DNA of 64,000 bases from positions 2,752,001-2,816,000 of the forward strand of contig OZ245015.1 of assembly GCA_965223705.1 (NCBI GenBank). The letters run 5' to 3'. The notes below the pieces were generated by a model. The model did not search any database. It had not been told where the DNA came from and saw only the letters and a list, made by a program, of their open reading frames with translations. Numbering within the stretch: the stretch's first letter is position 1; each line of letters starts with the position of its first letter. Below are positions 13,328 through 30,286 of the stretch, piece after piece. The translations under genes were made by a program, and so were the position numbers. Origin of the DNA: Myxococcota bacterium (GTDB lineage Bacteria > Myxococcota_A > UBA9160 > UBA6930).

Positions 13328-13510
13328 CTACCAGTCGCCCGATTCGGGCGGTTGGTAGTCCGCGACCTCATCGTGTGCTTCCTCGGTCAGCCAGGAGGCC
13401 GCGAAGCGCTTGAGGACCTGATAGGCGAGCCACAGGCGCTCGTCTACATCGGGCTCGAGAAGCGCTTCCGCCGCGGCGGTCGCTTCCTCCGACAGTGCGA
13501 GCTTACCCAT
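13328..13510 (-). CDS. Small hypothetical protein (60 aa), apparent paralogue of 13526-13759
   Basis: ATG-started ORF sharing an L..A...R..ASWL...D pattern with the upstream ORF. Confidence 0.6.
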   Translation of the reverse strand: MGKLALSEEATAAAEALLEPDVDERLWLAYQVLKRFAASWLTEEAHDEVADYQPPESGDW

Positions 13511-13525
13511 GGAGCGCGAGGGGCC

Positions 13526-13759
13526 TTACGACGCCTCGCCGATCCGATCGCAAACGTCCTGACCGCTCTTCGAGAGCCAGGACGCCTTGTGACGTCCGAT
13601 CAGAGACAGGGCCGCCAGCAGACCTTGATGGCCTAGGCCTTCGAGGATGCTCACGAAATGATCTTGGGCCGCGCGCAGCATGTGCTGAGCTTCGTCGATC
13701 TTGCGATGGGCTTCGCTCAGGAGTTGCTGGTCTTCTTGAATCTTCTCTTGGGTCGCCAT
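13526..13759 (-). CDS. Small helical hypothetical protein (77 aa)
   Basis: ATG at 13759 (MATQEKIQEDQQLL...); amphipathic helical sequence with ASWL motif. Confidence 0.65.
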   Translation of the reverse strand: MATQEKIQEDQQLLSEAHRKIDEAQHMLRAAQDHFVSILEGLGHQGLLAALSLIGRHKASWLSKSGQDVCDRIGEAS

Positions 13760-13871
13760 GACTGTCTCGTCGGCCGACTCGCACCCAAACTTTTGCACGG
13801 AGTTCAGCGCTCGACGAACCGGCAGACTTTTATCGGGGAGCGGCAATTTTCGGCCTGGGCGGGACACGCCG

Positions 13872-13970
13872 GCCTGCATCGCGGGCCCTCCGCCAGCGCG
13901 GTTCGGGTTTGCGGGTCCGGAGCCGCGCAGCTCAGGGGGTTGAGCGCCCGGGAGCCTCCGCGATGCAGGC
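13872..13970. ncRNA. Candidate structured RNA / multi-stem element
   Basis: 13-bp perfect inverted repeat GCCTGCATCGCGG (13872-13884) / CCGCGATGCAGGC (13958-13970) enclosing two internal hairpins, in intergenic DNA. Confidence 0.35.
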
Positions 13971-14056
13971 GCAGCCTGTTGCGCGGGAGTGAGCCAAACA
14001 TCGACCGGGAGGGTCAATCCTTGCCGCCCGGAACGGGAGTTCCCAATCCATCCACA

Positions 14057-14734
14057 TCAGCCGAACCCGTCGAGAGCTCCCGGAACCGCGTGGGAAGAGA
14101 AGAAGACCCAAAGCGTCTCTTTGAAAATCTCCTCCTCGGAGAGGCCTTCCTGCTGGCACCAGCGCAACCGGAAGGGATGCACCAGCGCGAAGAACGTGCG
14201 CACGATGGCGCGGGTGGAAGGCTCGGGCTTGCAATGCCCTTGTTCCTTGCAACGGTTCACGATCCAGCCGGTGAAGCGGAGCACGTCCTCGTTCCGAACG
14301 GCGTCCTGCAGGTACTCGGGAACGTCCTCCGGGAAGCAAACCTGGACGGCGAGCCGACCGTAGCGGCGGACCTGTGCGAAGCCTCGCTCCGCCCACCGCA
14401 CCATCATCTCCCGACCGTCTTCGAGCTTCTGGATCTTCTGGGCGTCTTCGTACACTTCGAGCGCCATCTGCTCGACGACTTCCCGGACGAGGGCGTCGCG
14501 CCCCGGATAGTGCCGGTAGAACGTCGAATTGCCGATGCCAGCAGCTTCGGTGAAGTCCCGTAGATCTGCGTCCCAGCCTTTGTCGGCGAGCACGTCGATC
14601 GCGCAGTCGCGGATGCGTAGTCGGGTCAGCTCCGCCCGGGTGGACCCCGGGTTCGTCTTGCGCAACGCGGCGTTTTCGCGCTCGAGTTCTTCGATCCGCT
14701 GCTCGAGTTCCCGTCGGTTGGGGCGGGTCACCAT
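14057..14734 (-). CDS. TetR/AcrR-family regulator with N-terminal coiled coil
   Basis: TRLRIRDCAIDVLADKGW...AAGIGNSTFYRHYPGRDAL TetR HTH, preceded by RRELEQRIEELERENAALRK. Confidence 0.85.
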   Translation of the reverse strand: MVTRPNRRELEQRIEELERENAALRKTNPGSTRAELTRLRIRDCAIDVLADKGWDADLRDFTEAAGIGNSTFYRHYPGRDALVREVVEQMALEVYEDAQKIQKLEDGREMMVRWAERGFAQVRRYGRLAVQVCFPEDVPEYLQDAVRNEDVLRFTGWIVNRCKEQGHCKPEPSTRAIVRTFFALVHPFRLRWCQQEGLSEEEIFKETLWVFFSSHAVPGALDGFG

Positions 14735-14806
14735 GTATTGTTGCCTCAGTCCGGGTTCCACCCGCCGATTCTGCGCGACGGGCCGCCGGAATGGAAGCCC
14801 GTCGGG

Positions 14807-15973
14807 TCAGTAGGATTTCGGGAGGCCCAGGACCCGCTCGGCCAGGTAACAAAGAATGAGCTGCGGGCTGACCGGCGCCAAGCGGTGGATCAACACTTCG
14901 CGGAGATAGCGCTCCACGTGATGCTCCTTGGCGTAGCCCATCCCCCCATGGGTCATCACGGCATTGGTGCACGTTTCAAACGCCGCTTCTGCGGCGAGGT
15001 ATTTCGCGGCGTTCGCTTCGGCGCCGCACTCCTCGCCGAGGTCGTAAAGCCCCGCCGCCTTCATCACCATCAAGTTCGCCGCTTCGAGCGCTGCCCAGTT
15101 CGCGGCCAACGGATGCTGAATGCTTTGGTTTTGCCCGATCGGGCGATCGAACACGACCCGCTCGCGGGCGTAGTTTGTCGCCCTCTTGAGGGCGACCCTC
15201 CCGAGCCCGACGAGGCCGGCCGCGATCAAGATGCGCTCGGCGTTGAGCCCGGACAAGAGGTAGCGAAAACCGCGGCCCTCCTCGCCGATGCGGTGTTCGA
15301 CGGGGATCGGCAACCCCTCGATAAACAGCTCATTGGAGTCGACTGCGTTCCGACCCATCTTCTCGATCTTCCGCACGTCGACGTACTCGCGATCGAGATC
15401 GGTATAGAAGAGCGACAGGCCGTCGATCGGTCGCTCCGTTTCTTCGATGGGTGTGGTCCGCGCGATCAGGAGAATCTTGTTCGCGACCTGGGCCGTCGAG
15501 ATCCAGACCTTCTCTCCGTGGACGATGTAGTGGTCGCCGTCGCGAACGGCGCGCGTTTTCAGGCGCGTCGTGTCGTGGCCCGTGTTCGCTTCCGTGACGC
15601 CGAAGCACGCGATGTCGTCTCGGCGGATGATGCGCGGCAGCCACGCTTTCTTTTGTTCTTCGCTCCCGTGATGGACGATCGGCGATACGCCGAAGATGCC
15701 GATGGCGACGGCGGAGACGCCACTGTTCGCCGCGCCCGATTCCGAAATCGCTTGAACCACCAGCGCCGCTTCCGTCGTACCGAGGCCGCTGCCGCCGTAA
15801 GCCTCGGGGATCGCGGTTCCAATCCAACCGCCGTCGGCGAGGGCACGGCAGAGCTCTTCTGGGAAACGCCCATCGGCATCGCGATCGAGCCAGTACTGAT
15901 CATCGAAGCGAGAGCACAATTGGAGCACGCTCTCCCGAATCTGCTGGTGTTCTTCGCTGAGCCAGAGGTTCAC
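14807..15973 (-). CDS. Acyl-CoA dehydrogenase
   Basis: FGVTEANTGHD, GEKVWIS, HRIGEEGRGF, NAERILIA, THGGMGYAKE; GTG start at 15973. Confidence 0.93.
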   Translation of the reverse strand: MNLWLSEEHQQIRESVLQLCSRFDDQYWLDRDADGRFPEELCRALADGGWIGTAIPEAYGGSGLGTTEAALVVQAISESGAANSGVSAVAIGIFGVSPIVHHGSEEQKKAWLPRIIRRDDIACFGVTEANTGHDTTRLKTRAVRDGDHYIVHGEKVWISTAQVANKILLIARTTPIEETERPIDGLSLFYTDLDREYVDVRKIEKMGRNAVDSNELFIEGLPIPVEHRIGEEGRGFRYLLSGLNAERILIAAGLVGLGRVALKRATNYARERVVFDRPIGQNQSIQHPLAANWAALEAANLMVMKAAGLYDLGEECGAEANAAKYLAAEAAFETCTNAVMTHGGMGYAKEHHVERYLREVLIHRLAPVSPQLILCYLAERVLGLPKSY

Positions 15974-16117
15974 GGGCGCTCCTTCCCTCGATGAAGCCTC
16001 GCGCGATCGCGGCGAGGGCAACCGTGAGAATCTTGGGTTCTCGCTTCGAATACAAGGCCTCTTGTGGTCCAATTGCCCAATGTCAGCCGGCGACGCGTTG
16101 TTTTTCGAGCCGATCCG

Positions 16118-17173
16118 TTGAGCTTTCAGGTCACCGTCGAGCCGCTGGGCGAGATCCTCGAGGTCGAAGAAGGCCAGACCATCCTCGACGCCGCCTTGCG
16201 GGCGGGCGTCGCCCTCCCCTACGCGTGCAACCACGGCCTCTGCGGCACATGCAAGGTCGACGTCCTCGAAGGCGAGGTCGAGCACGGCGAGGCTTCGGCT
16301 TTCGCGTTGATGGACGTCGAGCGCGACGAGGGGAAGTGCCTCACCTGTTGCGCCCGGCCCCGAAGCGACCTCGTGATCGAGGCCGATGTCGAAGAGGAGC
16401 CCGACGCGCAACGGCATCCGGTGGCGGACCACCGGGCAACCGTCGTCGAGATCAGCGATCTGACCCCGACCGTGAAACGCGTACGGCTCGAAACGGAACG
16501 CCCCTTGGCGTTCCAGGCGGGGCAGTACATCAACCTGAGGGTGCCGGGGGACGAGGTACCGCGCGCCTTCTCCCTGGCCAACGCCCCGGGCGAGGCGCAG
16601 CTCGAGCTGCAAGTGAGGCTGGTTCCCGGCGGCAAGGGCACGACCTGGATTCACGAAGAGCTCGCCGCCGATACCTCGGTCTCCTTCACGGGCCCCTTGG
16701 GCCGATTCTTCGTGCGCCGAAGCCTCCCCGGAAAGCGACTGTTTCTCGCCGGTGGGTCTGGGTTGTCGAGCCCGAAGTCGATGATTCTGGCGCTCCTGGC
16801 CGCGGGGGAGTCCGCGCCGATCGAGTTGATCCACGGGGTGAGAACGAGGGAGGAACTCTACGACGACGAGCTGTTCCACGACCTCGCCGCGGACCATGAG
16901 CACTTTACCTACACCCCCGCGATCTCCGACACGGCAGGCGACGGCTTCGCGGGTGCGCGGGGGATGGTCCACGAGGTCGCGGACGAGCGCTTCGGTGGTC
17001 GCTTTGAGGACATGGTGGCGTACCTCTGCGGTCCCCCGCCGATGATCGATGCCTGCTTGACGACCCTGATGCGGGGGCGGTTGTTCGAGGAAAGAATCTT
17101 CACCGAGTCTTTTTTCACCGCCGCCGACGCCGAGCGTCCGCCTAAGCGGAGTGCGCTCTTCAAGAAGTTCTGA
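16118..17173 (+). CDS. dmpP: Phenol hydroxylase reductase ([2Fe-2S]/FAD/NADH), DmpP-like
   Basis: YACNHGLCGTCK ferredoxin motif, RAFSLAN, AGGSGLSSPKSMI, AYLCGPPPMIDAC, C-terminal RSALFKKF; TTG start inferred. Confidence 0.92.
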   Translation: MSFQVTVEPLGEILEVEEGQTILDAALRAGVALPYACNHGLCGTCKVDVLEGEVEHGEASAFALMDVERDEGKCLTCCARPRSDLVIEADVEEEPDAQRHPVADHRATVVEISDLTPTVKRVRLETERPLAFQAGQYINLRVPGDEVPRAFSLANAPGEAQLELQVRLVPGGKGTTWIHEELAADTSVSFTGPLGRFFVRRSLPGKRLFLAGGSGLSSPKSMILALLAAGESAPIELIHGVRTREELYDDELFHDLAADHEHFTYTPAISDTAGDGFAGARGMVHEVADERFGGRFEDMVAYLCGPPPMIDACLTTLMRGRLFEERIFTESFFTAADAERPPKRSALFKKF

Positions 17174-17179
17174 CCGATA

Positions 17180-17195
17180 TTGATCATTTGAGCAC
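17180..17195. promoter_or_regulatory. Putative XylR/DmpR-type upstream activating sequence
   Basis: TTGATCATTTGAGCAC resembles the TTGATCAATTGATCAA palindrome (13/16); about 40 bp upstream of the sigma-54 site. Confidence 0.45.
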
Positions 17196-17232
17196 ATGAA
17201 ACCGACGAAACAACTGGAGCGTCGCCCGCGGT

Positions 17233-17248
17233 CGGAACGCAGCTTGCA
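17233..17248 (+). promoter_or_regulatory. Sigma-54 (-24/-12) promoter upstream of dmpK
   Basis: CGGAACGCAGCTTGCA has exact GG-N10-GC spacing with TTGCA at -12. Confidence 0.7.
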
Positions 17249-17285
17249 CAGCAGATGCTGGGTCGACCTACTCTTCGGGAGAGCG

Positions 17286-17525
17286 ATGGGGCAAACTTCG
17301 GGGGTGCCGGCTGTGTCCCAGCGGGGAAGACATTCAGAACCGACCGAACGCCGCTACGTCCGGGTGACCGGAGAGCGCCGGGGCTTCGTCGAGTTCGAAT
17401 TTTCGGTGGGAGACCCCAGCGTGGCGCTCGAGATGATCCTTCCCGCCGAAGCCTTCCGGGAGTTCTGTCGGGAAAACCGGGTGCGGTTCCTACGGGAGAG
17501 ACGAGACGATGTCGATCGAGATTAA
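17286..17525 (+). CDS. dmpK: Phenol hydroxylase assembly subunit P0, DmpK-like
   Basis: RYVRVTGERRGFVEFEFSVGDP...EMILPAEAFREFC motif; ATG at 17286 with GGGAGAG RBS. Confidence 0.88.
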   Translation: MGQTSGVPAVSQRGRHSEPTERRYVRVTGERRGFVEFEFSVGDPSVALEMILPAEAFREFCRENRVRFLRERRDDVDRD

Positions 17526-18510
17526 GACGGCGACCACGGAGCCGCTCCGCACGACCTTTGATCATTTACGGGATCGGCTCGGCGAGGGGAAGACCCCGAG
17601 CCGCTATCAGGAAGCCGTCTTCGACCTTCAGGCGACGCTCAACTTCCACTACCGCCCGACTTGGGCGCCGGATTCGGCGCTGTACGATCCGGGGCTCACC
17701 GCGATCCGGATGGATGATTGGGATCAGCTCACCGACCCGCGCCAGTACTACTACGCGACCTACGTGATGGCCCGGGGGCGTCAACAGGACTCGCAAGACA
17801 AGAACTTCAGCCTCGTCGAGGACAAGAAACTCTTGGCGGGGCTCGACGCCGACGGGCGAGAGCGCTTGACGGAACTCACCGTCCCCCTCCGACACGCCGA
17901 ATGGGGCGCCAACCAGGTGAACGTCTACATCGCAGGCTACGGCTCGGGCGCGGCGATGACATCGGCCGCCACCTTCCAGGCCTTCGATCGTTTGGGGAAC
18001 GCGCAGTACCTTTCTCGCCTGGGGCTTCTGCTGGGAGACGGAGCCCCCGACGCGCTCGGTGCCGCCAAGAGCGCTTGGCTTGCGGCCCCCCACTGGCAAC
18101 CCTTGCGTCGGCTCCTCGAGGATCTCCTCGTCGAGAAAGACTGGTTCGAGGCCCACCTCGTGCAGAACTTCCTGCTCGACGGCTTGCTGCACCCCACGAT
18201 CTTCGAAGACTTTTCGGATGCCCTGGCACCCCGGGGCGGCCTCGCCTTTCCGCTGCTCACCGAATTCACCGTGGCTTGGTTCTCCGAGTCGGTGCGTTGG
18301 ACGGACGCCGTCCTGAAGCGAGCGGCGGCGGAGAGCGAGGACAACGCTCGGCAGTTCACCAGCTGGGCTGCGAACTGGACCCCTCGGATACGCGAGGCGG
18401 TAGCCCCGTTGGCGGAGCTGGCGCTGGGAGAAGCCGGCGAGGCCTGCCTCGAGGAGAACTTGGGCGCCCTGAAGAAGCGGGCCGAGAAATGTGGGATCGA
18501 GGTTTCGTGA
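17509..18510 (+). CDS. dmpL: Phenol hydroxylase beta subunit, DmpL-like
   Basis: MSIEIKT, SRYQEA.FDLQ..NFHYRPTW, DPRQYYY, DRLGNAQYLSR, DWFE. Confidence 0.93.
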   Translation: MSIEIKTATTEPLRTTFDHLRDRLGEGKTPSRYQEAVFDLQATLNFHYRPTWAPDSALYDPGLTAIRMDDWDQLTDPRQYYYATYVMARGRQQDSQDKNFSLVEDKKLLAGLDADGRERLTELTVPLRHAEWGANQVNVYIAGYGSGAAMTSAATFQAFDRLGNAQYLSRLGLLLGDGAPDALGAAKSAWLAAPHWQPLRRLLEDLLVEKDWFEAHLVQNFLLDGLLHPTIFEDFSDALAPRGGLAFPLLTEFTVAWFSESVRWTDAVLKRAAAESEDNARQFTSWAANWTPRIREAVAPLAELALGEAGEACLEENLGALKKRAEKCGIEVS

Positions 18511-18785
18511 TGGCGGACAAGGTCTTCATTGCGCTTCAGAACACCGACGACGCGAGGCCGTTGGTCGAGGCGATCCTCGAGGACAACCCGAGTGCCGAAC
18601 TCAGCGAGCTTCCGGCGATGCTGAAGATCGACGCCCCGGGCCGCCTCGTCGTGCGACGGGACACCGTCAGCGAGAAGAGCGGACGCGATTTCGACCTGCA
18701 GGAGATTCACCTGAATTTGATCTCGCTCTCGGGAAACATCGATGAGAGCGACGACGAGTTCGTATTGGCCTGGCACACGGAGTAA
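18510..18785 (+). CDS. dmpM: Phenol hydroxylase regulatory/coupling protein, DmpM-like
   Basis: KVFIALQ, VEAILEDNP, PAMLKIDAPGRL, LISLSGNIDE. Confidence 0.93.
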   Translation: MADKVFIALQNTDDARPLVEAILEDNPSAELSELPAMLKIDAPGRLVVRRDTVSEKSGRDFDLQEIHLNLISLSGNIDESDDEFVLAWHTE

Positions 18786-18787
18786 CG

Positions 18788-20314
18788 ATGGCAACCAAGC
18801 GGCTTCCCCTTCGCGAGAAATATCAGCACCTGACCCGCGGGCTCGACTGGGAGACGACCTACCGCTCGATGGACGAGGTCTTCCCGTACGACACCTACGA
18901 GGGGATCAAGATCAAAGATTGGGATCGCTGGGAGGACCCCTTCCGTCTGACGGTGGACGCCTACTGGAAGTACCAGGCCGAGAAGGAACGCAAGCTCTAC
19001 GCCATCCTCGACGCTTTCTCACAGAACAACGGCCACCTGAACCTTTCGGACGCCCGCTACCTCTCCGCGGTGAAGCTGTGGATCCAGGGGATCACCCCCC
19101 TCGAGTACGGCGCGCATCGAGGCTTCGCCCGCATGGGGCGCGCGTTCCGCGGCGCCGGAGCGCGCGTCGCGTGTCAGATGCAGTCGATCGACGAGCTGCG
19201 CCACGCCCAAACCCAGCTCCACGCCTTCAGCCACTACAACAAGTACTTCAACGGCATGCACCAATGGGTGCACATGCGCGACCGCGCCTGGTACCTCTCG
19301 ATTCCGAAGTCTTTCTTCGAAGACGCGATGACGGCGGGACCCTTCGAGTTCGTCACCTCGATCTCGTTCGCCTTCGAGTACGTCCTGACGAACCTCCTCT
19401 TCATGCCCTTTGTGTCCGGCGCCGCCCACAACGGTGACATGGCCACCACGACCTTCGGGTTCTCGGCGCAGTCCGACGAATCCCGCCACATGACCCTCGG
19501 CCTCGAGGTCGTGAAGTTCATGCTCGAGCAGCACGAAGACAACGTGCCCATCGTCCAGGGCTACCTCGACAAGTGGTTCTGGCGCGGGTACCGCCTCCTG
19601 GTCCTCGTGGGGACCATGATGGACTACATGCTGCCGAAGAAAGTGATGTCCTGGCAGGAGGCCTGGGAGATCTACTGGGAGGAGAACGGAATCGCCCTCT
19701 TCCACGACTTGGGCCGCTACGGGATCGAGCTTCCGAAGCACCATGAGGTTGCGACGAAGGAAAAAGGCCGCGTGACCCATGAAGCGTGGGCGACGCTCTA
19801 TTCCTTCCGCAACGCCACGGGCTTCCACAGCTGGATTCCGGAGACCCATGAGCTCGACTGGATGTCCGAGAAGTACGGGAGCCTCTTCGACGAGCTCTAC
19901 CGACCGCGGCTCGAGCACTGGCGCGGGCTCGAAGAAGCTGGCACTCCCTTCTTTGGTAACGTGCTGCCCCTGGTCTGCCAGACTTGTCAGATCCCCGATT
20001 TCTTTACCGAGCCCGACGACCCGCGCAAGCCGTGCGTGCGCGAAACGCAGTACCGCGGCATGCACTTCACGTTCTGCTCCGACGGCTGCAAAGACATCTT
20101 CGAGAACGAGCCTGAGAAATACGTCCAGGCCTACATTCCGCCCCAACAGATCTACCAGGGCAACTGCGGCGGGGCGAAGGACATCGCCGAATACGCGAAG
20201 TGGCTGGCGCTCGAGATGGGTGTCGACACCGGCGGATTCGAGGGCTCGCCGGATGCCGAAAACTGGAAGCGCTGGCGCGGCGGCGAAGCTTCTGGCGAAG
20301 GCGCGGCGGCGTAG
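18788..20314 (+). CDS. dmpN: Phenol hydroxylase alpha (di-iron) subunit, DmpN-like
   Basis: WEDPFRLT, di-iron motifs PLEY, DELRH, FEY, DESRH; CQTCQIP and FCSDGC zinc site. Confidence 0.96.
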   Translation: MATKRLPLREKYQHLTRGLDWETTYRSMDEVFPYDTYEGIKIKDWDRWEDPFRLTVDAYWKYQAEKERKLYAILDAFSQNNGHLNLSDARYLSAVKLWIQGITPLEYGAHRGFARMGRAFRGAGARVACQMQSIDELRHAQTQLHAFSHYNKYFNGMHQWVHMRDRAWYLSIPKSFFEDAMTAGPFEFVTSISFAFEYVLTNLLFMPFVSGAAHNGDMATTTFGFSAQSDESRHMTLGLEVVKFMLEQHEDNVPIVQGYLDKWFWRGYRLLVLVGTMMDYMLPKKVMSWQEAWEIYWEENGIALFHDLGRYGIELPKHHEVATKEKGRVTHEAWATLYSFRNATGFHSWIPETHELDWMSEKYGSLFDELYRPRLEHWRGLEEAGTPFFGNVLPLVCQTCQIPDFFTEPDDPRKPCVRETQYRGMHFTFCSDGCKDIFENEPEKYVQAYIPPQQIYQGNCGGAKDIAEYAKWLALEMGVDTGGFEGSPDAENWKRWRGGEASGEGAAA

Positions 20315-20324
20315 GCGCGGAGCG

Positions 20325-20687
20325 ATGGCGGTCAAGCACCTCGGCGATTCGTACGATTTCCCGCCGGCGAACGCCGTCGAGAACTACGGCGGCGCCATCA
20401 ATCTCTACTTCGTCTGGGAGGACCACCTCCTCTTCACCTGCCCGATGGCGGTCCCCGTGCCTCCGGACATGCCCTTCCGCATCTTTGTGTCAGATGTCAT
20501 GAAGCTCTGTTACGCGGCGCATCCGGATTTTGAGAAGATCGACTGGGCCGCCGTAGAATGGACTCACGAAGGGCAGGACTGGAAACCGGATTTCGACGCT
20601 ACCCTTGTCGAGAACGGTTTGCACCATATGTCCTACTTTAAGTTCCGCACCCCGGGCCTCGAGGGCCTGGACGATCGAAAGATCTGA
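20325..20687 (+). CDS. dmpO: Phenol hydroxylase gamma subunit, DmpO-like
   Basis: YDFPP..ENY, WEDHLLF, PPDMPF, YAAHPDF.KIDW, FRTPGL.G. Confidence 0.9.
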   Translation: MAVKHLGDSYDFPPANAVENYGGAINLYFVWEDHLLFTCPMAVPVPPDMPFRIFVSDVMKLCYAAHPDFEKIDWAAVEWTHEGQDWKPDFDATLVENGLHHMSYFKFRTPGLEGLDDRKI

Positions 20688-20698
20688 GAGGAGAGACC

Positions 20699-21442
20699 AT
20701 GGCCGAATCACGCGCAGCGGCGATCACCCGCGACCTCATCAAGGCGTTCAACGACATTGTCGCCAAACACAACATCACCCATGCGGAGTATCGCGCGGGG
20801 ATCGATTTCATCGGCGAAGCGGTCGCCAAGGGCGAGCAATCGTTGCTCCCCGACGCGTTCCTCGAGGCCGACGTCGTCGCTCACGATGCTCTGGCACAGC
20901 AGGGAACGTTCAGCCAGGTGCTCGGGCCCTACTACCTGCCGGATGCTCCCTGGCTCGAGAACGGCCAACTTGCGAGTGCGGATGAGCCCGGCGACCGCCT
21001 GGTGTTGCACGGCATCGTGCGGGGTACCGACGGGAAGCCGCTCGAGAATGCGGTTCTCGATTTCTGGCAGTGCGACGCGAAGGGCGCCTACTCGAACTTC
21101 AACCCCGGCACGAAGGACGGCAATCTGCGCGGTCGGATGAAGAGCAACAAGGACGGCAGCTACGAACTCCATACGGTGGTTCCCGCCGCCTACACGATCC
21201 CGCATGAAGGTCCGACGGGCAGGCTCCTGAATGAGCTGGGACGGCACCCCTGGCGCCCGGCCCACATCCACCTGCTCGCCTCTCACGATGGCTTCCGGCC
21301 GCTCACGACGCAGATCTACTTCGAGGGCGATCAGTACCTCGATTCGGACGCGGTGGGAGCAGCTCGGCCGGAGCTTTCCATCGCGCTCAAAGGCGGCGGA
21401 GACAAGACGGCCGAGTTCGATATCGAGCTCGAAGCCGCGTGA
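20699..21442 (+). CDS. Intradiol (chloro)catechol 1,2-dioxygenase, short type
   Basis: GPYY, DFWQCDAKGAYS, YTIPHEGPTG, HPWRPAHIH (Tyr/Tyr/His/His Fe ligands); 247 aa with a short N-terminal dimerisation domain as in ClcA/TfdC-type enzymes. Confidence 0.88.
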   Translation: MAESRAAAITRDLIKAFNDIVAKHNITHAEYRAGIDFIGEAVAKGEQSLLPDAFLEADVVAHDALAQQGTFSQVLGPYYLPDAPWLENGQLASADEPGDRLVLHGIVRGTDGKPLENAVLDFWQCDAKGAYSNFNPGTKDGNLRGRMKSNKDGSYELHTVVPAAYTIPHEGPTGRLLNELGRHPWRPAHIHLLASHDGFRPLTTQIYFEGDQYLDSDAVGAARPELSIALKGGGDKTAEFDIELEAA

Positions 21443-21449
21443 AACCCAC

Positions 21450-21482
21450 ACACGACGGCGTCCCTGAACGGCGCCGTCGTGT
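21450..21482. terminator. Hairpin between the convergent dioxygenase and dehalogenase genes
   Basis: 11-bp perfect inverted repeat ACACGACGGCG / CGCCGTCGTGT; no U-tract. Confidence 0.55.
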
Positions 21483-21490
21483 ATCGCCCC

Positions 21491-23689
21491 CTAGCCTCGG
21501 CCCGCTCGCTCTCGGTAGGCCGCCATCCCGAGCTTCCGATCCGGAGGCGTCGGCGGATCGTCGGGCTTCGGCTGAAGCTCCGGGGGATAGCACGCGAGCT
21601 TCTGATCCGTCGGTTGTTCGCGGAAGTTGAGCTGCCGCGCGTTTACCCGCTGCGCGGGGACGAGATTGCCCTCTTCGTCGGAGTCGATATCCCACCACCA
21701 CTTCTTCACGGGGTTGATCCGGCCGTTCCCGACCTTGTCATCGAGCTTCGCGATCCACTCGCGTGTGAAGGGCAGCTTCATCGCCGACCACAAGAACGGA
21801 CGCTCCGGGAGGATGCCCTCGAGGTTAAACGGGCAGGTCTTCATGCAGCGGCCGCACATCGATCCCGAAGAGTTCGTGATCCGGTAACGCGCACACTTTT
21901 CGACATCGGGTTTCCAGATCTCATACCCGTTGAACATGATCTTGTCGCCGAAGGGAATCGCCGAGGTCGGGCATTCCCGCGCGCACTTGTTGCAGCGATT
22001 GCAGAAATCCTGCAGTCCGAAATCGATCGGCATGTCGGGCGCGAGCGGCATGTCCGTCGTAATGATCCCGGACTTGAAGCGAGGACCGACAAAGGGGTTC
22101 AGCACGAGTTCACCGATCCGGGCGAGCTCGCCCAGACCCGCGAGCAGAATGAGCGGGATGTGCAGAACGTCCTGATCGATCACGCTGTGGCCCCGAGCCG
22201 AGAAGCCCAGCCGGCGCAGTTGATCCGCGACGACGCCGCCCACGAGCTGAGCCCGCATGTAGGCGCGCATGCTTTGCGCGCCGGAGATCCAGTCGTCGCC
22301 GCTGCCGCCCTCCATCGTTTCGTAGCCCTGATCGACCAGGATGGCGATGCCATACTTGTGGTAGGGCTTGATCTCCGAACCGTCGGTGTCGTGGGAATAC
22401 CACGCGTAGTCGGGCACCTCACAAATCCCGACCATATCAGCGCCCATATAGTGGAGGGCCGCCTTCACCATCTTCGCGTTCTTCACCGGATCGTCGTAGC
22501 CGGGCGCGATCTCGTGCGCCTCTTTCCCGTACTGAAGCGGCACCATGCCGCCGAGCACCGGGATCATCGCGTGCCCAAACGGCGATTTGGTGATCATTCG
22601 AAAGTTGTCGAGCTCGTGCTTCGCCTTGTCGCCGAGATCTCCGATCGCCGCGCGCAAGAACATGTCCGCACGCTTCGGATTGCGTTTCACCTGCTCGGGC
22701 TCGATGTGCGTGGTGGGCTTCTCGACCCGGTCGACCTTCTCCATCGGGTAAAGGCCCATGTGAAACGGTCGGTCGCGGAAGAGCCGGCCTTGATAACCGG
22801 CCCGCGCGCCCCCGTAGCCGAGCCACCAACCGGGACCGTGCGCCTTCCATCGTTCCGCAACGTCGCGTCGCGCGAGGGCTCCGTCTGGCTCGAGGGCGAG
22901 GGTTGTGGTCACGGCGACGACGCCGAAACCCGCGCCGAGATACGGGCTCACCACGTCGCCAGCGTCGCCCAGCTCCCCGAGTCCGGAGGCCAGTAGGAGA
23001 GCCTCGAGATCGACCTCTGTCGCGGTGCCCGTATGCAACGTCGCGTCGTAACCGAGAAAGCGCAGGTAGTTGGAGACGACGGCCCCCACCTCGGCTGCTC
23101 GGAGCGCTGCGCGCTGCGCTTGGGTTCCGACGATCCAGGGACCGCCGGGCTCGTCCGGATCGGGACGGCGCGTGTACTCCGCGAGGATGACGAGTGACGA
23201 GACGTGCGACGAGAGATCATCGGTGGCCTGCTGCTCTCGCGCCCACGCACCCCGACCCTCACGGACACTCGCTTCGGCCATCACGTTCTCGGCAGAGCCC
23301 GCCGCATATTCCTGCGACACAGCCAGGGCGAGCGACTCGTTCACAATCGGATCGGCGAGGATGGCTCGTGACGGAAGCCCGCAGACACCGGCCATGCTGG
23401 CGTCGAGGTAGTAGCAAGCCGCCTTCAGGTGGGCAGCGCGTTCTCCTGGGTCCTCGGGAATGGGACCGGTTTTCGGCGCCACCGGGCCGCGACGCATCCG
23501 GTCCATGATGTCGATGTAGGTACGCATCGAGTTGGCGAGTGCTGCCGGGTTCTCCGGGTCCTCGATGGAGAGTGCCGGGCGCCGCTTCTCAATTCGCGAG
23601 GCGCCTCCGTCGTCCGGGAGGCGGGCCAGGCGTTCGAGCGGATACGGACCGAGATGGACCGGACGTTTTCGATGAGAGAACATGCGCAT
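21491..23689 (-). CDS. rdhA: Catabolic (non-respiratory) cobalamin-dependent reductive dehalogenase, NpRdhA/BhbA-like
   Basis: N-terminus MRMFSHRKRPVHLGPYPLERLAR with no TAT leader; duplicated cobalamin-fold halves; GDDWISGAQSMRAY, GLGELARIG, NPFVGPRFKSG; Fe-S motifs CNRCNKCARECP and CGRCMKTCP; KKWWWD. Confidence 0.93.
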   Translation of the reverse strand: MRMFSHRKRPVHLGPYPLERLARLPDDGGASRIEKRRPALSIEDPENPAALANSMRTYIDIMDRMRRGPVAPKTGPIPEDPGERAAHLKAACYYLDASMAGVCGLPSRAILADPIVNESLALAVSQEYAAGSAENVMAEASVREGRGAWAREQQATDDLSSHVSSLVILAEYTRRPDPDEPGGPWIVGTQAQRAALRAAEVGAVVSNYLRFLGYDATLHTGTATEVDLEALLLASGLGELGDAGDVVSPYLGAGFGVVAVTTTLALEPDGALARRDVAERWKAHGPGWWLGYGGARAGYQGRLFRDRPFHMGLYPMEKVDRVEKPTTHIEPEQVKRNPKRADMFLRAAIGDLGDKAKHELDNFRMITKSPFGHAMIPVLGGMVPLQYGKEAHEIAPGYDDPVKNAKMVKAALHYMGADMVGICEVPDYAWYSHDTDGSEIKPYHKYGIAILVDQGYETMEGGSGDDWISGAQSMRAYMRAQLVGGVVADQLRRLGFSARGHSVIDQDVLHIPLILLAGLGELARIGELVLNPFVGPRFKSGIITTDMPLAPDMPIDFGLQDFCNRCNKCARECPTSAIPFGDKIMFNGYEIWKPDVEKCARYRITNSSGSMCGRCMKTCPFNLEGILPERPFLWSAMKLPFTREWIAKLDDKVGNGRINPVKKWWWDIDSDEEGNLVPAQRVNARQLNFREQPTDQKLACYPPELQPKPDDPPTPPDRKLGMAAYRERAGRG

Positions 23690-23699
23690 GAGCGAAAAC

Positions 23700-26174
<2,475 letters not shown>

Positions 26175-26178
<4 letters not shown>

Positions 26179-26522
26179 CCTCGGGCTTCCTCCTGGGTGG
26201 TCGATGGGCAAGTCCGTTGGCAACGGGCAAAGGAACGGTCGCACGCCATGGTGTCGTGGCCCCTCGAACGGCAGCGCGTTCGGATTCGCGTGCACGACGC
26301 CTCGCAGGAGTCCCCCGACGCGCAGGATTCGAGGCACGCTCGGAGCTCCTCGACGCAGATCCCGCCGGAGTCGCGCGTACATCCGCGAAAAACCGTCTGG
26401 CAGCGCGGTTCGCAAGTCGATCGACCGGATGATGAACCACCGGGCGCCGGTGCGCAGCCGAGGGCGACCAGGACGCACAGGACGCCGCGACCGAAAAGAC
26501 GGTACCCGCCCCGCGCACTCAC
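26175..26522 (-). CDS. Cys-rich putative lipoprotein (two CX3CX6C-Xn-CX6CX3C repeats)
   Basis: Lipobox-like LVALGC; 12 regularly spaced Cys; GTGA overlap with the pcaF stop and ATGA overlap with the CMD start. Confidence 0.7.
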
Positions 26523-27724
26523 ACCGCTTCGAGGGCTATGGCTATGCCCTGGCCGACGCCGATGCACATCGTCGCCAGCGCGAGCTTTTCTCCCCGCTCC
26601 TTGAGCTCGAGCGCCGCGGTCCCGACGATGCGCGCGCCGGTCATTCCGAGCGGGTGTCCCAAGGCGATGGCGCCACCGTTCGGATTGACGTGCTCGGCGT
26701 CGTCCGGGAGGCCGAGCTCGCGCAACACCGCAAGGCCCTGACTCGCGAACGCCTCGTTGAGCTCGATCACGGAGAAATCCGAGGGCTTTAAAGACAGCCG
26801 CTCGCAGAGCTTTTGCGTCGCCGGCGACGGCCCGATGCCCATGACGCGCGGAGGGACACCCGCCGCCGCGCCGCCCAACACCCGCGCGATGGGCGTGAGC
26901 CCGTGCTTCGCGGCGCCGGCCTCTGACGCCACCACCAACGCCGCCGCGCCGTCGTTCACGCCCGAGGCATTTCCCGCGGTGACAGTGCCCGGTTGTCGGA
27001 AAGGCGTCGGCAGCTTCGCCAGCTGTTCGGCCGTCGTGTTCGGTCGCGGGTGCTCGTCGCTGTCCACCACACGCGGCTCTCCTTTTCTGACCGGAACCGT
27101 TACGGGGGTGATCTCCAAGGCGAGTCGGCCCGAGCCCGCGGCGCGTCCCGCCTTGTGTTGAGAACGAAGGGCGAACGCGTCTTGGTCGGCGCGGGAGACG
27201 GCAAAATCTTCGGCGACGTTTTCCCCCGTCTCGGGCATCGAGTCGACCCCGTACTGCTTTTTGAGCACCGGGTTGATAAAGCGCCAACCGATAGTGGTGT
27301 CGTAGATCTCGGGATTTCTCGCGAAGGCCGTCTCGGCCTTGGGCATCACAAAGGGAGCGCGTGACATGCTCTCGACTCCCCCGGCCACGGCGAACTCCGC
27401 TTCGCCGGCGCGAATCGCCCGCGCGGCGGTCAGCAGCGCATCCATCCCGGATCCGCACAACCGGTTGATCGTTCCGCCGGGAATATTCTCCGGTAGTCCG
27501 GCCAACAGCAGTGCCATGCGCGCGACGTTTCGATTGTCTTCCCCCGCCTGATTCGCGCAGCCGTAGAGCACGTCGTCGAGAGCTTCCCAGTCGACGCCCG
27601 GATTGCGCTCGAGCAGTGCGCGCAGCGGGATCGCGGCGAGGTCATCCGTACGCACCGAAGACAGCACACCACCAAAACGGCCAATGGGGGTGCGGATGTA
27701 GTCGCAAATGAAGGCTTCCGGCAT
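26519..27724 (-). CDS. pcaF: 3-oxoadipyl-CoA thiolase
   Basis: GCANQAGEDNRNVARM, NRLCGSG, YDTTIGWRF, NEAFASQ, GHPLGMTGAR, MCIGVGQG. Confidence 0.93.
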   Translation of the reverse strand: MPEAFICDYIRTPIGRFGGVLSSVRTDDLAAIPLRALLERNPGVDWEALDDVLYGCANQAGEDNRNVARMALLLAGLPENIPGGTINRLCGSGMDALLTAARAIRAGEAEFAVAGGVESMSRAPFVMPKAETAFARNPEIYDTTIGWRFINPVLKKQYGVDSMPETGENVAEDFAVSRADQDAFALRSQHKAGRAAGSGRLALEITPVTVPVRKGEPRVVDSDEHPRPNTTAEQLAKLPTPFRQPGTVTAGNASGVNDGAAALVVASEAGAAKHGLTPIARVLGGAAAGVPPRVMGIGPSPATQKLCERLSLKPSDFSVIELNEAFASQGLAVLRELGLPDDAEHVNPNGGAIALGHPLGMTGARIVGTAALELKERGEKLALATMCIGVGQGIAIALEAV

Positions 27725-27740
27725 GGCATTCTCCAGAGGG

Positions 27741-28502
27741 CTAGCGAGACGCTTCGCTCCGCGCGTGGAGCTCGCGAAGAACTCCGAGTTCCTCGGGGCT
27801 CGCCGGCGGCGTCTCGGCGAGATCGCTTGCGAAGCGAACGTCCCAACCGACGGTTTCGGTGACCGCCTCGCGCGTCACGCCGGGGTGAAGCGAGGTCACG
27901 CAGAATTCCTTGGTCTCCGGATCGGGCTCCCAGAGCGCCAGGTCCGTGATGAGGCGCGTCGGGCCGGCCGTGGTCAGGCCGTGTTCTCGGCGGTCTCGTC
28001 CACCGCGGCCGTGTCCCATCGACGTGACGAAGTCGATTTCGCGCACGAAGCCTCGGGTCGACTGCTTCATCGTGATGAAGATCTCATGGCAACACGAAGC
28101 GATCTCGGGAGCACCGCCGCCGCCGGGAAGACGCACGCTCGGGCTCGCATAGGGACCGACAACGGTCGTGTTGATATTGCCAAAGCGGTCGAGCTGCGCC
28201 GCCCCGAGAAAGCCCACGGTCACGTGCCCGCCCTGCAACCAGTAGCGAAACATCTCGGGGACCGAGACCGTCGTCAGAGCCGTGTCACACAGCTCCCCGT
28301 CGCCGATCGAAAGCGGCAGAACGCGGGGCTCGGTCCCGATGGTTCCGCTTTCGTAGATCAGGGTGATTCCCGGCGCGTGCGTCAACCGCGCGAGATTGCA
28401 CGCCGCTGACGGCGCGCCGATGCCGACGAAGCAGACATCGTCGGATGAAAGCGCCCGCGCGGCGGCGATGGTCATCATTTCGTTCGGCGTCGCGTCGCTC
28501 AC
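27741..28502 (-). CDS. catJ: 3-oxoadipate CoA-transferase subunit B (CatJ/GctB type)
   Basis: EMMTIAAAR, CFVGIG, LIYESG, LPLSIGDG, GFLGAAQLDRFGNINTT, RLPGGGGAPEIA. Confidence 0.88.
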   Translation of the reverse strand: MSDATPNEMMTIAAARALSSDDVCFVGIGAPSAACNLARLTHAPGITLIYESGTIGTEPRVLPLSIGDGELCDTALTTVSVPEMFRYWLQGGHVTVGFLGAAQLDRFGNINTTVVGPYASPSVRLPGGGGAPEIASCCHEIFITMKQSTRGFVREIDFVTSMGHGRGGRDRREHGLTTAGPTRLITDLALWEPDPETKEFCVTSLHPGVTREAVTETVGWDVRFASDLAETPPASPEELGVLRELHARSEASR

Positions 28503-29350
28503 GAGCGAAGTCCGCGCACGCGTTCTGCGAAGACCTCGGGCCCGACCTCCAGAACATGCTCTTCCATGTACCGGCGGAACGCGTCCCGGTCGGAAGCCAC
28601 CTTGTCCCACGCGACGTAGGCCGCGTTGTCGCGGTCGTAATAGCCCCGCGCGTAGGACGGGTGGGCACCGCCGGGTACGCAAACGATCGCGCCGACACAA
28701 AACCGGGGCAGCACGCACGCGTTCGGATGCAGTTCATCGAACTCCTCGACGATTTCCTCCACGGTCACGACGTTGCGTTTTGCCGCGAGCACCGTCTGCT
28801 TCTGCACACCGAGGATGCCTTCGAGCAACACGTCGCCGCGGCGGTTCGCTTTCTGCGCGTGGATCACGCCAACATCTGGATTGATCGCCGGGATCGCCGC
28901 AAGCGATTCCCCGGTGAACGGACAGGTCACGTCCCGAATCGTCGGCGTCACCGCGCGCAGACCCGCTCCCACGTAGCCCCGAAAGACGGCGAAGGGCAGT
29001 TTCGCCGCTCCGGCTTCGTACGCGTTGGCCATCGCCGCGTGAGAGTGCTCCTCGATTTCGAGGGCAACCGGCCACTCCTTTTCAACCGCGTCTCGCAACC
29101 GCCGCAGGAGCCCGACGCCGGGATTCCCCGCGTACGAGAAGATCAGCTTCCGGGCGCAACCCGTGCCGATCATCTGGTCGTAGATGAGGTCCGGCGTCAT
29201 GCGAACCAACGTGAGATCGCGCCGCCCTTGACGGATGGTCTCGTGCGCAGCCGCGTGAGGAATGAGGTGCGTGAAGCCCTCGAAGGCCACGCAATCTCCA
29301 TCGCGGATGTTCTCGGCAATGGCCTCGGCGAGCGACTGAAAAACCGCCAT
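28499..29350 (-). CDS. catI: 3-oxoadipate CoA-transferase subunit A (CatI/GctA type)
   Basis: AFEGFTHLIP, RMTPDLIYDQ, GNPGVG, EEHSHA, GAHPSYA.GYYDRD. Confidence 0.88.
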   Translation of the reverse strand: MAVFQSLAEAIAENIRDGDCVAFEGFTHLIPHAAAHETIRQGRRDLTLVRMTPDLIYDQMIGTGCARKLIFSYAGNPGVGLLRRLRDAVEKEWPVALEIEEHSHAAMANAYEAGAAKLPFAVFRGYVGAGLRAVTPTIRDVTCPFTGESLAAIPAINPDVGVIHAQKANRRGDVLLEGILGVQKQTVLAAKRNVVTVEEIVEEFDELHPNACVLPRFCVGAIVCVPGGAHPSYARGYYDRDNAAYVAWDKVASDRDAFRRYMEEHVLEVGPEVFAERVRGLRS

Positions 29351-29392
29351 GCGCCCGAGTATAGGCGCGCCCCCGGATCGTCAGTAGCGCGC

Positions 29393-30286
29393 TCAGCCGA
29401 GCGGCTTCAGGCCGGCGTCCTCCGCACATACGCGACCTAAGCCCGCCCAGTCGAACTCGTGATAACCGCGCGCCAAGGCTGTCAGGAACTGGTCGCGGAC
29501 CAAGCTTCCGAGCGGCATCGGCACAGTGTTGGCTTCGGCAGCGGAGAGCGCGAGCTTCACGTCCTTGAGACCGAGCGGAAGCTTGAAGCCCGCGGGCTCG
29601 TAGGTGTCTCTGGCCACCATCCCGCCGTACGTCTTGTAGACCGGTGCCGGGAAGATGGTGCTGGTCAAGATCTCGAGAAACGCTTCCGGGTCGATCCCGT
29701 AGGTTCGGGTCAACGCGAACGCCTCGCCCAAGCTCTCGCAAAGCGCGGCGAGCATGAAGTTCCCCCCGATCTTGACGATGTTCGCTGCGACCGGGTCCTC
29801 CCCTACGACGAAGTGGCGTTGACCGACCGCCGCAAACGCCGGTTCGCAGGCGGCGATCGCGGTGGGCGACCCCGCCGCGACGACGAAGAGTTGCCCCGCG
29901 GCTGCGGCGGGTGGCCTTCCGAAGACCGGAGCCGAAACATAACCCTGGCCAGCCTTCCCGTGAGCGTCCGCCAACTGGCGTCCCATATCGACACTGATCG
30001 TGGCCATGCAAGCGTGGACGGCGCCGGTCTCGAGCCCCGCCAACACTCCGCGATCGCCGAAGGTCACCGCCTCGGTCGCAGCATCGTCGGCGAGGATGCT
30101 CAAGACAGCCTCCGCTCCGCGACACGCGTCGGCGGGCGTTTCGACCGCGACGGCGCCGTCGTCGACGAGCGCCTCAGCGCGACTTCGGGTGCGGTTGTAC
30201 ACGCGCACCGCGTGACCCGCCGAGAGCAGGTTCCGCACCATGCCCTCCCCCATCGCGCCGACTCCTACGAAACCGAATTGACCCAT
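29393..30286 (-). CDS. NAD(P)-dependent oxidoreductase, beta-hydroxyacid dehydrogenase family
   Basis: GFVGVGAMG Rossmann motif, YNRT, SAPVFGRP, KIGGN, GLKDVKLAL. Confidence 0.88.
   Translation of the reverse strand: MGQFGFVGVGAMGEGMVRNLLSAGHAVRVYNRTRSRAEALVDDGAVAVETPADACRGAEAVLSILADDAATEAVTFGDRGVLAGLETGAVHACMATISVDMGRQLADAHGKAGQGYVSAPVFGRPPAAAAGQLFVVAAGSPTAIAACEPAFAAVGQRHFVVGEDPVAANIVKIGGNFMLAALCESLGEAFALTRTYGIDPEAFLEILTSTIFPAPVYKTYGGMVARDTYEPAGFKLPLGLKDVKLALSAAEANTVPMPLGSLVRDQFLTALARGYHEFDWAGLGRVCAEDAGLKPLG

Follow-up and report, generated by a model that had tools for sequence, protein, structure and literature searches.

A putative upper route for halophenols and 2-aminophenols built around a stand-alone B12-dependent dehalogenase in a Myxococcota genome

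A pathway in which reductive dehalogenation precedes aerobic ring cleavage is already known: that for bromoxynil in Comamonas sp. 7D-2, carried on plasmid pBHB (NC_021077) and comprising, in the accessible portions of its descriptions (PMC10463259, PMC5316534), the dehalogenase BhbA, a PobA-type monooxygenase and a protocatechuate 4,5-dioxygenase. BhbA, a fusion with an NAD(P)H reductase, has hydroxybenzoates as substrates; a flavin monooxygenase and extradiol cleavage come next. A stand-alone counterpart is NpRdhA of Nitratireductor pacificus pht-3B (structures 4RAS and 6ZXU; PMC7565698, in part). The few characterised catabolic dehalogenases have mostly been assayed on hydroxybenzoates or are tied to a herbicide pathway. 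Here we describe a locus (nt 16118-29350) within a 64,000-nt stretch of a Myxococcota genome (GCA_965223705.1, contig OZ245015.1, nt 2,752,001-2,816,000; hereafter the window), in which a gene for a stand-alone reductive dehalogenase (rdhA) lies among genes for a phenol hydroxylase (dmp), a 2-aminophenol 1,6-dioxygenase (amnBA), a short intradiol dioxygenase and enzymes of the beta-ketoadipate route. In our view the chances are about even that it encodes the upper half of a pathway by which halophenols (most likely bromophenols) and halo-2-aminophenols are degraded aerobically, joined to an unexplained lower half.

The locus consists of two converging gene runs, in which all named genes were found intact by Pfam and family searches and in the list of open reading frames (ORFs). 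The plus-strand run (nt 16118-21442) reads dmpP-K-L-M-N-O and then the intradiol dioxygenase gene, with successive intergenic gaps of +22, -17, -1, +2, +10 and +11 nt. The minus-strand run (nt 29350-21491) carries catI-catJ-pcaF, a Cys-rich ORF, a tandem carboxymuconolactone decarboxylase (CMD) gene, amnB, amnA and rdhA, with gaps of -4, +16, -4, -4, +23, -19 and +10 nt. Gaps across both runs thus range from -19 to +23 nt, and 48 nt separate the runs from each other. This inter-run gap holds a hairpin (nt 21450-21482, no strand assigned) with a 13-pair stem and a 7-nt loop (-24.4 kcal/mol; z of -4.87 on the plus and -6.05 on the minus strand), which none of 200 shuffles equalled on either strand. 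It has no U-tract and does not appear in the terminator-scan listing; from its sequence it is a probable shared terminator or 3' stabiliser for both runs. An earlier note on this DNA, made from the letters alone, had described two tightly packed runs converging on this hairpin, and the gene order, coordinates and hairpin were all confirmed. Independent short-read contigs cover nt 13500-23554, 19621-25298 and 21432-29282, the three overlapping across the entire locus; they derive from four runs on two samples of one study, possibly the source sample. As they bridge the locus junctions, misassembly was rejected. In one run (X3), the depth of which is very uneven, a contig links nt 19363 and 21541 on opposite strands, a join that could stem from chimera formation during amplification or from an inversion in some strain.

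The rdhA gene (nt 21491-23689, minus strand) specifies a catabolic reductive dehalogenase of 732 aa with neither a reductase domain nor a twin-arginine (Tat)-type leader. The protein scores 210.1 bits over the reductive dehalogenase model TIGR02486 (cut-off 160.35) and 609 bits against NpRdhA, but less than 90 bits against the respiratory enzyme PceA. Its predicted structure (predicted local distance difference test, 84; predicted template modelling (TM) score, 0.91) matches NpRdhA with TM-scores of 0.84 (6ZXU) and 0.88 (4RAS) and PceA with about 0.3, and shows a duplicated N-terminal domain together with the NpRdhA fold, as in the class of about 700 aa. NpRdhA residues S422, M423, Y426, K488, K542 and R552 are conserved as S473, M474, Y477, K539, K593 and R603; the available text of PMC7565698 assigns S422, Y426, K488 and R552 to hydroxyl binding and proton donation. 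Cysteines for two [4Fe-4S] clusters are present in the C-terminal part (C563, C566, C569, C573, C599, C612, C615 and C619). The absence of a Tat leader was judged by inspection, the N-terminus aligning with that of NpRdhA from residue 1, and there is no gene for an RdhB anchor, rdhA being flanked by amnA and the dioxygenase gene. Nor does the protein belong to the self-sufficient BhbA/JtRdhA subtype, since it ends where the reductase of BhbA starts. The proposal in the earlier note that this is a cytoplasmic dehalogenase of the NpRdhA/BhbA type is supported by the intact active site, the fold and the family score.

Within that type, however, RdhA stands apart. A tree of 73 rows (from an alignment of 81, less 8 whose starts or ends were uncertain) places it in a 28-row clade (Shimodaira-Hasegawa approximate likelihood ratio test, 98) that is uncharacterised and to which neither NpRdhA nor BhbA belongs. 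A Myxococcales protein, 85% identical, is its sister, and the clade includes many stand-alone proteins of about 740 aa sharing 60-72% identity, the named ones mostly from Gammaproteobacteria. A sister branch of the clade (P0039, P0082, P0049) contains forms fused to a reductase (about 1,090-1,100 aa) as well as stand-alone ones, including one from Pseudomaricurvus alkylphenolicus, which might serve as a cultured organism for tests. Relative to NpRdhA, the window protein has a 48-residue insertion and six changes in the pocket (F290M, K307L, F310M, P311I, A419G and N452V). The equivalent of NpRdhA K307 is L360. According to the portion of PMC7565698 at hand, in one pose of the product that lysine forms a salt bridge with the benzoate group. 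The pocket signature M-F-L-M-I-G...V is common to the clade, which keeps the hydroxyl-binding and proton-donor residues throughout, while RdhA paralogues in the same gammaproteobacterial genomes retain Arg at the K307 position. The leucine and the clade-wide signature fit non-carboxylated phenols, from which we infer that the clade prefers simple halophenols; the window enzyme itself probably removes bromine from simple phenols. For 3,5-dibromo-4-hydroxybenzoate the locus encodes no oxygenase that could act next.

The grouping of rdhA with the other ring-attacking genes recurs elsewhere. In a second Myxococcales metagenome-assembled genome (MAG), AmnA (NNL85167.1) and RdhA (NNL85168.1) have consecutive accessions on a 6,280-bp contig, so that the rdhA-amnA adjacency is present there too. 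A sister RdhA (P0003), a short dioxygenase (P0219) and an AmnA (P0314) each report a contig of 2,879,704 bp, from which we infer one shared contig and genome; matching by length in this way retrieved the contigs G215:C347 and G216:C115 correctly. In a metagenome locus (L175), amnBA-ridA converges on dmpMNOP-ferredoxin-catechol 2,3-dioxygenase-...-rdhA; four more of the 80 AmnB metagenome loci (41 of at least 10 kb) have dmpK beside amnBA across a DmpR gene. Genome G080 carries rdhA beside dmpL with amnBA 25 kb away in one cluster, and in G043 rdhA ends a dmp/meta operon. Directly upstream of the latter dmpR-dmp-meta-rdhA cluster lie genes for a hydroxyquinol 1,2-dioxygenase and a maleylacetate reductase (L205:12386-17041), and in G080 amnBA is followed, judging from translations, by methylcitrate-cycle prpB/C/D-like, AhpD-like, DsbA-like and glutathione S-transferase genes (L233; G080:C1:1012001-1032000). 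Among 126 genomes of a gammaproteobacterial order, the 21 with a full-length RdhA of this clade (7 of them placed in the tree, the rest assigned by 63-67% identity) have amnB in 21 and dmpN in 20 cases; the corresponding figures are 11 and 4 for 21 genomes with only other RdhA copies, and 3 and 5 for 84 genomes without RdhA. Genome G115, which the tree places elsewhere, was left out of the clade count, and G082, with a partial copy, was counted as 'other'. The clade rdhA follows a DsbA-like gene in 20 of the 21, and in three loci viewed at length this DsbA-rdhA pair forms the end of a lower meta-cleavage operon. In these gammaproteobacterial clusters, catechol 2,3-dioxygenase with a full meta pathway stands in place of the ortho branch of the window; the lower meta pathway can also serve AmnBA, as the available text of PMC10470539 has it. 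The combination of rdhA with amnAB and dmp genes singled out by the earlier note is therefore found again in L175 and G080, and its rdhA-amnA part in the Myxococcales MAG, but in the gammaproteobacterial order the genes are usually unlinked, and among the 225 genomes of the window's class the set is unique.

The phenol hydroxylase is complete, with all six subunits of the multicomponent type. The run opens with dmpP (nt 16118-17173), for a reductase with 2Fe-2S, FAD and NAD domains (Pfam Fer2, FAD_binding_6, NAD_binding_1), and continues with dmpK (17196-17525; assembly subunit, PF06099; start uncertain, 17196 or about 17289), dmpL (17509-18510; beta subunit, PF02332), dmpM (18510-18785; effector, PF02406), dmpN (18788-20314; di-iron alpha subunit, PF02332 and YHS, with both DExRH motifs) and dmpO (20325-20687; gamma subunit, PF04663), all on the plus strand. 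DmpN scores 758 bits against phenol hydroxylase PhN versus 130 against ToMO. The DmpN query found no match in the 40 relatives first searched, screens that left out G215 and G216, both of which came from a search of 225 genomes of the class; in G216 the dmp genes likewise start with the reductase, encode a DmpN of 89% identity and lie beside a short dioxygenase gene. Three more soluble di-iron monooxygenase clusters, at 28-30% identity to DmpN, occur in the window's genome (G000:C1:1844024-1849839, 3283795-3287695 and 3299973-3302903), one of them preceding a GroEL-like gene.

The intradiol dioxygenase (nt 20699-21442, plus strand; 247 aa) belongs to an uncharacterised clade of short enzymes. 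Residues Y131, Y165, R186, H189 and H191, which include the iron ligands, are invariant in 62 of 62 clade members. It had been called chlorocatechol-type, a label we rejected: the protein reaches 235.2 bits on TIGR02465, against a cut-off of 359.25, and falls in a clade of its own (17 of 38 rows, SH-like support 99 in a FastTree tree), a branch of about 60 relatives of 247-250 aa. It scores equally against Rhodococcus CatA and ClcA, and its scaffold is nearer to these (179 bits), hydroxyquinol enzymes scoring 108-149 bits. All but one of 62 members have Leu at position 75, where hydroxyquinol dioxygenases have Leu or Phe and CatA and ClcA have Glu or Gln; position 219 fails to separate the specificity groups. 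A literature search, thin on subscription papers and without supplements, found nothing on specificity residues of hydroxyquinol or chlorocatechol dioxygenases. The clade occurs in 5 of the 225 class genomes: G000 (the window's own), its two congeners G001 and G002, G215 and G216. In G215 the gene has a dienelactone-hydrolase-like gene immediately upstream and, on its other side, one for a tandem CMD of 57% identity. The congeners (L253, L254) have 46% GC in the fetched regions and assemblies of 2.1-2.3 Mb (65% and 4.56 Mb for the window genome), and in G002 the dioxygenase gene follows an amidohydrolase/ketopantoate-reductase-like/hydratase trio, which in G000 (C1:4487310-4490138) comes without a dioxygenase.

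The aminophenol enzyme is encoded by amnB (nt 24515-25399, minus strand), for the catalytic beta subunit of 2-aminophenol 1,6-dioxygenase (79% identity to CnbCb), and amnA (23700-24533, minus strand), for the non-catalytic alpha subunit (52% to CnbCa), in which the metal-site residues are replaced; like that of RdhA, the nearest relative of AmnA carries a Myxococcales label. AmnB H14, H63, Y130, H196 and E252 are the same residues in CnbCb, and we take them to be the iron-site residues; the pair is of the LigB-type beta-alpha kind, with the iron site on the beta subunit only. The 2-aminophenol meta pathway is incomplete, as no AmnC-level dehydrogenase, DmpF or 4-oxalocrotonate tautomerase was found in the genome. 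The best match to aminomuconic semialdehyde dehydrogenase (43% identity; 485 on TIGR03216 versus 693) sits in a separate cluster resembling 4-hydroxyphenylacetate catabolism, and an AmnD-like RidA (50%) is unlinked to the locus. Genes for homotrimeric Rieske ring hydroxylases, with a PF11723 protein as a relative, occur at G000:C1:3396359-3397558 and 3729873-3735412, and similar genes stand directly upstream of ridA-amnBA in G092 and G098; such hydroxylases are a possible source of aminophenols from N-heterocycles.

At the far end of the minus-strand run are the two subunits of a coenzyme A (CoA)-transferase of the glutaconate type (both PF01144), catI/pcaI (nt 28499-29350; A subunit) and catJ/pcaJ (27741-28502; B subunit, frame checked), and pcaF (26519-27724), a 3-oxoadipyl-CoA thiolase scoring 676 on TIGR02430 (cut-off 597). 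The best solved relative of CatI is glutaconate CoA-transferase, and it shares 65-73% identity with CoA-transferases on alphaproteobacterial plasmids; CatIJ is assigned to 3-oxoadipate by family, position and homology rather than by an equivalog, and PcaF by its score above cut-off. The tandem CMD (25423-26178) contains PF02627 twice and can be assigned to its family only. The name PcaC was rejected for it, the score on TIGR02425 being 106.9 (cut-off 155.7) and no PcaB rising above cut-off in the genome; among the 225 class genomes it is found in two, G000 and G215, both times within the dioxygenase locus. Between it and pcaF, overlapping each by 4 nt, lies the Cys-rich ORF (26175-26522; 115 aa, 14 Cys), all on the minus strand. 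The lipoprotein label given to it earlier finds a lipobox-like motif (ALGC) in its favour but no family behind it: there was no Pfam match, all Atlas matches were below 0.9, and no clear paralogue was seen. Its codon use is atypical (2nd percentile).

What joins these two ends was not recovered. Four CatB/ClcB tblastn queries found no muconate or chloromuconate cycloisomerase in the genome, where the sole PF13378 match is an enolase below cut-off, and with CatA-type queries the window dioxygenase was the only match. No canonical maleylacetate reductase was found in the genome by a ClcE query and a motif, the best candidate being an Fe-dependent alcohol dehydrogenase (Fe-ADH; C1:4457874) at 29% identity to ClcE. 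For CatC/CatD there are two PF02426 matches elsewhere (48 and 45 bits), no CatC tblastn match, and a best PcaD match of 26%; the two muconolactone-isomerase-family genes (G000:C1:2829206-2829580 and 3486546-3486857) lie in unrelated contexts. A dienelactone-hydrolase-like gene (30%) and alpha/beta-hydrolase genes are likewise unlinked to the locus. The four relatives with the short dioxygenase (75-91% complete, the window genome being 95.2%) also show no CatB: in three the best enolase-superfamily matches reach 96-98 bits against 335 for TIGR02534, and the fourth has only a PF13378 match below cut-off. With the linking enzymes not found in a 95%-complete genome, a complete funnel to beta-ketoadipate cannot be drawn, and muconate and aminomuconic semialdehyde have no recognisable onward route. 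The integrated funnel that the earlier note had proposed accordingly finds no support in that form. AmnBA is of the meta type, and what it produces stays outside the beta-ketoadipate route.

The route we favour would begin with cytoplasmic RdhA, which, using scavenged cobamide and two [4Fe-4S] clusters, may remove the halogen ortho to the phenolic hydroxyl, with electrons presumably drawn from NAD(P)H by way of a carrier of its own, be it a ferredoxin of the host or, possibly, DmpP. DmpKLMNOP would then hydroxylate the phenol, or a remaining 4-halophenol, to the catechol, as expected of its family, and the short intradiol dioxygenase would open the ring to a muconate, its family being clear and its substrate putative. 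On the same run as rdhA, AmnBA is predicted to open 2-aminophenols as a side branch, the semialdehyde from which would partly cyclise to a picolinate, as there is no neighbouring AmnC. CatIJ and PcaF, by family, would complete the last steps from 3-oxoadipate to succinyl-CoA and acetyl-CoA. Since no genes for the conversion of muconate to 3-oxoadipate are recognisable, that stretch may fall to unrecognised enzymes, to missing sequence or to other members of the community.

Several observations weigh against this reading, whose assignments come from sequence and model. None of CatB/ClcB, PcaB, a canonical maleylacetate reductase, an AmnC orthologue, DmpF and the tautomerase was found in the genome, nor was CobS, and no dedicated electron donor or ferredoxin gene stands beside rdhA. 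The argument from K307L concerns one residue, in a non-productive binding pose. As to linkage, RdhA of this clade was found in only 1 of the 80 AmnB loci, and of the 21 gammaproteobacterial genomes only 2 have rdhA and dmpN no more than 25 kb apart, and 1 has rdhA and amnB so placed; as these 21 carriers are probably close kin, their co-occurrence tallies are not independent. Among the RdhA matches listed, none of 80 genome-collection loci had amnAB or dmpN in the flank, a screen that drew mainly on the fused BhbA type, with identity over 51% for only 4 of the 80 loci and the other 76 from other clades, and that covered catI. In the class, amnB, catI and this type of RdhA occur only in G000 and dmpN only in G000 and G216; one other class RdhA, in G185, has a different pocket, and the ortho/CatIJ-PcaF version is seen in 1 of 225 genomes.

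A rival view, which we hold rather unlikely, is that the locus is no single pathway but an accretion of separately acquired modules for different substrates or detoxification, releasing muconates and picolinates for other organisms. The blocks differ in nearest relatives and in their spread through the class (dioxygenase in 5 of 225 genomes, dmpN and CMD in 2 each, amnB and catI in 1 each), both congeners hold the dioxygenase gene in an unrelated context without dmp genes, the linking enzymes were not found, AmnBA and CatIJ/PcaF share a run though their meta-type and ortho chemistries are unconnected, and 2-aminomuconic semialdehyde cyclises spontaneously to picolinate, as stated in the accessible parts of PMC3790839 and PMC10470539. 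Yet the rdhA-amnA adjacency recurs, the RdhA/Dmp/AmnBA trio reappears in other gene orders, and all the genes are intact, closely spaced and adapted in codon use, dmpN ranking in the top percentile. Should the non-dehalogenating use of RdhA be considered instead, in some other cobamide-dependent redox role in phenol metabolism, one could cite the six altered pocket positions, the 48-residue insertion, and the fact that the clade members compared here are known from sequence; we find this hardly credible, given that all residues binding the phenolic hydroxyl or donating the proton are kept across the clade and that BhbA and NpRdhA, both of which debrominate, differ from each other at the same pocket positions.

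Two other explanations accept a complete route and differ over its lower half. In one, which appears decidedly unlikely, the short dioxygenase feeds 3-oxoadipate without CatB: the tandem CMD might lactonise or otherwise handle muconate, the CoA-transferase and the divergent acyl-CoA dehydrogenase might form a muconyl-CoA route, or hydroxyquinol or 4-halocatechol might be cleaved to maleylacetate and reduced by a distant Fe-dependent dehydrogenase. CatB is not seen in the other four genomes of the dioxygenase clade either, but these are only 75-91% complete. The tandem CMD accompanies the dioxygenase in both class genomes that have it, and in G215 the dienelactone-hydrolase-like gene adjoins the dioxygenase gene, but G001, G002 and G216 lack a CMD orthologue and all four relatives lack catI. 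Leu75 is shared with hydroxyquinol dioxygenases, but it is a single position, position 219 is uninformative, and the scaffold is nearer CatA/ClcA. G000 does hold two muconolactone-isomerase-family genes, the dienelactone-hydrolase-like gene and the Fe-ADH elsewhere, while the acyl-CoA dehydrogenase is one among many paralogues. In the other explanation, a classical ortho or modified-ortho funnel exists and catB/clcB and the further linking genes are lost from the assembly only. A completeness of 95.2% leaves room for this, and muconolactone-isomerase-family, dienelactone-hydrolase-like and alpha/beta-hydrolase genes do occur elsewhere in the genome; it is very unlikely all the same, because several genes would have to be missing together from a two-contig assembly in which the locus lies away from contig ends and is spanned by contigs of other assemblies, and because relatives with the same dioxygenase also show no CatB.

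Returning to the favoured reading, an upper halophenol and halo-2-aminophenol route, the host would have to supply cofactor and electrons. Its genome (4.56 Mb in total, 4.54 Mb of it on one of the two contigs) encodes five B12-binding domain proteins and, on sequence evidence, uses B12. As CobS was not found in it, de novo synthesis was rejected and cobamide must be scavenged. The TonB receptor at nt 11378-13318 (plus strand) was tried and rejected as BtuB (48 versus 600 bits; best match ZnuD-like); there is no cobalamin riboswitch in the window, and no RNA holder is listed. NpRdhA takes electrons from non-cognate ferredoxin systems (PMC10463259, in the text available), so by analogy a host ferredoxin or DmpP could serve the window enzyme. 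The flat GC of the window (0.62-0.68) and the host-like codon use of the locus genes (27th-100th percentile of 1,762 long ORFs, the Cys-rich ORF excepted) led us to reject a recent mobile island. The locus looks like an old, host-adapted mosaic of three blocks: dmp/dioxygenase/CMD, shared with order-level relatives; amnBA-rdhA, related to marine gammaproteobacterial genes, the RdhA clade being mainly gammaproteobacterial; and catIJ-pcaF, of alphaproteobacterial type.

At the borders, an acyl-CoA dehydrogenase gene (nt 14807-15973, minus strand) is divergent from dmpP and a beta-hydroxyacid dehydrogenase family gene (29393-30286, minus strand) lies 42 nt upstream of catI; both are only candidate members of the locus. 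A TetR-family regulator gene (PF00440) is at nt 14057-14761 (minus strand), and no DmpR-type activator gene was found beside the dmp genes at the locus. Promoter and inverted-repeat scans returned nothing beyond chance except the hairpin. A TATACT hexamer, a consensus match only, stands 7 nt ahead of the catI start (nt 29350-29363, minus strand) with no Shine-Dalgarno sequence, a position that would fit a leaderless transcript. The window also has genes for tRNA-Sec and two other tRNAs (nt 9395-9489, plus; 35563-35648, minus; 40853-40925, plus).

Bromophenols are abundant marine natural products (PMC13101508, in the part available), and the company that the clade keeps in two phyla, a phenol hydroxylase and a 2-aminophenol dioxygenase, suggests natural substrates, which are testable with existing Escherichia coli expression systems. 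It may even be, doubtful as we consider it, that this widespread stand-alone clade is the entry enzyme of marine aerobes for natural bromophenols and bromo-aminophenols, the Myxococcota passing the products to 3-oxoadipate without muconate cycloisomerase through the short dioxygenase and tandem CMD. For the ARO system, the accessible text of PMC10470539 gives the upstream source of 2-aminophenol as unknown, and the grouping gives a clue as to why AmnBA is so often met at a distance from nitrobenzene pollution. At the muconate step the gap is well delimited, and candidate genes for it can be named; were it real and left unfilled, the locus would exemplify degradation shared among community members.

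Compared with known systems, each part of the locus has a counterpart from which it departs. DmpKLMNOP systems with ortho cleavage and the beta-ketoadipate route (PhN structures 3U52, 2INN) share the six subunits, an intradiol enzyme, CatIJ and PcaF; the locus differs in its P-K-L-M-N-O order, the lack of an adjacent DmpR, the separate short dioxygenase clade, and the absence of catB, catC and catD, no catB being found genome-wide. The modified ortho system ClcA/B/D/E (1S9A, 2BOY, 3TH1) resembles it in dioxygenase length, 42% identity to Rhodococcus opacus ClcA and D52-A53 as in 1S9A, but the window enzyme has Leu75 for Gln and Ala-Val at 218-219 for Ser/Cys-Cys, and no ClcB or ClcE partner. 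The cnb cluster of Comamonas testosteroni CNB-1 and the clusters named amn in Pseudomonas and Paraburkholderia xenovorans LB400 have the same beta-alpha gene order and the AmnB and AmnA similarities given above; they also hold semialdehyde dehydrogenase, deaminase, hydratase, decarboxylase and aldolase genes, none of which is at the locus, where amnA is instead followed by the dehalogenase gene. With NpRdhA, the window protein shares the stand-alone two-domain fold, the catalytic and hydroxyl-binding residues and the lack of a Tat leader (PMC7565698, as far as available), yet structural identity is 42-43%, the branch is separate and the pocket altered; the NpRdhA gene sits with a ferredoxin reductase and two ferredoxins in the portion of PMC10463259 at hand, and the window rdhA does not. 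The bromoxynil pathway, finally, likewise places a catabolic B12 dehalogenase before aerobic hydroxylation and ring cleavage, and RdhA is 46% identical to the dehalogenase part of BhbA, but it is stand-alone, of another clade, and encoded beside a phenol hydroxylase of the di-iron kind, AmnBA and an intradiol dioxygenase. Our literature search, in a library thin on subscription papers, found no description of RdhA with phenol hydroxylase or AmnBA, and the earlier note knew of no characterised pathway with such a combination; the reductive-then-oxidative logic is already known from the bromoxynil pathway, with different parts. Particular to the present locus are the ortho branch without CatB, the direct coupling of amnA and rdhA, and the Myxococcota host.

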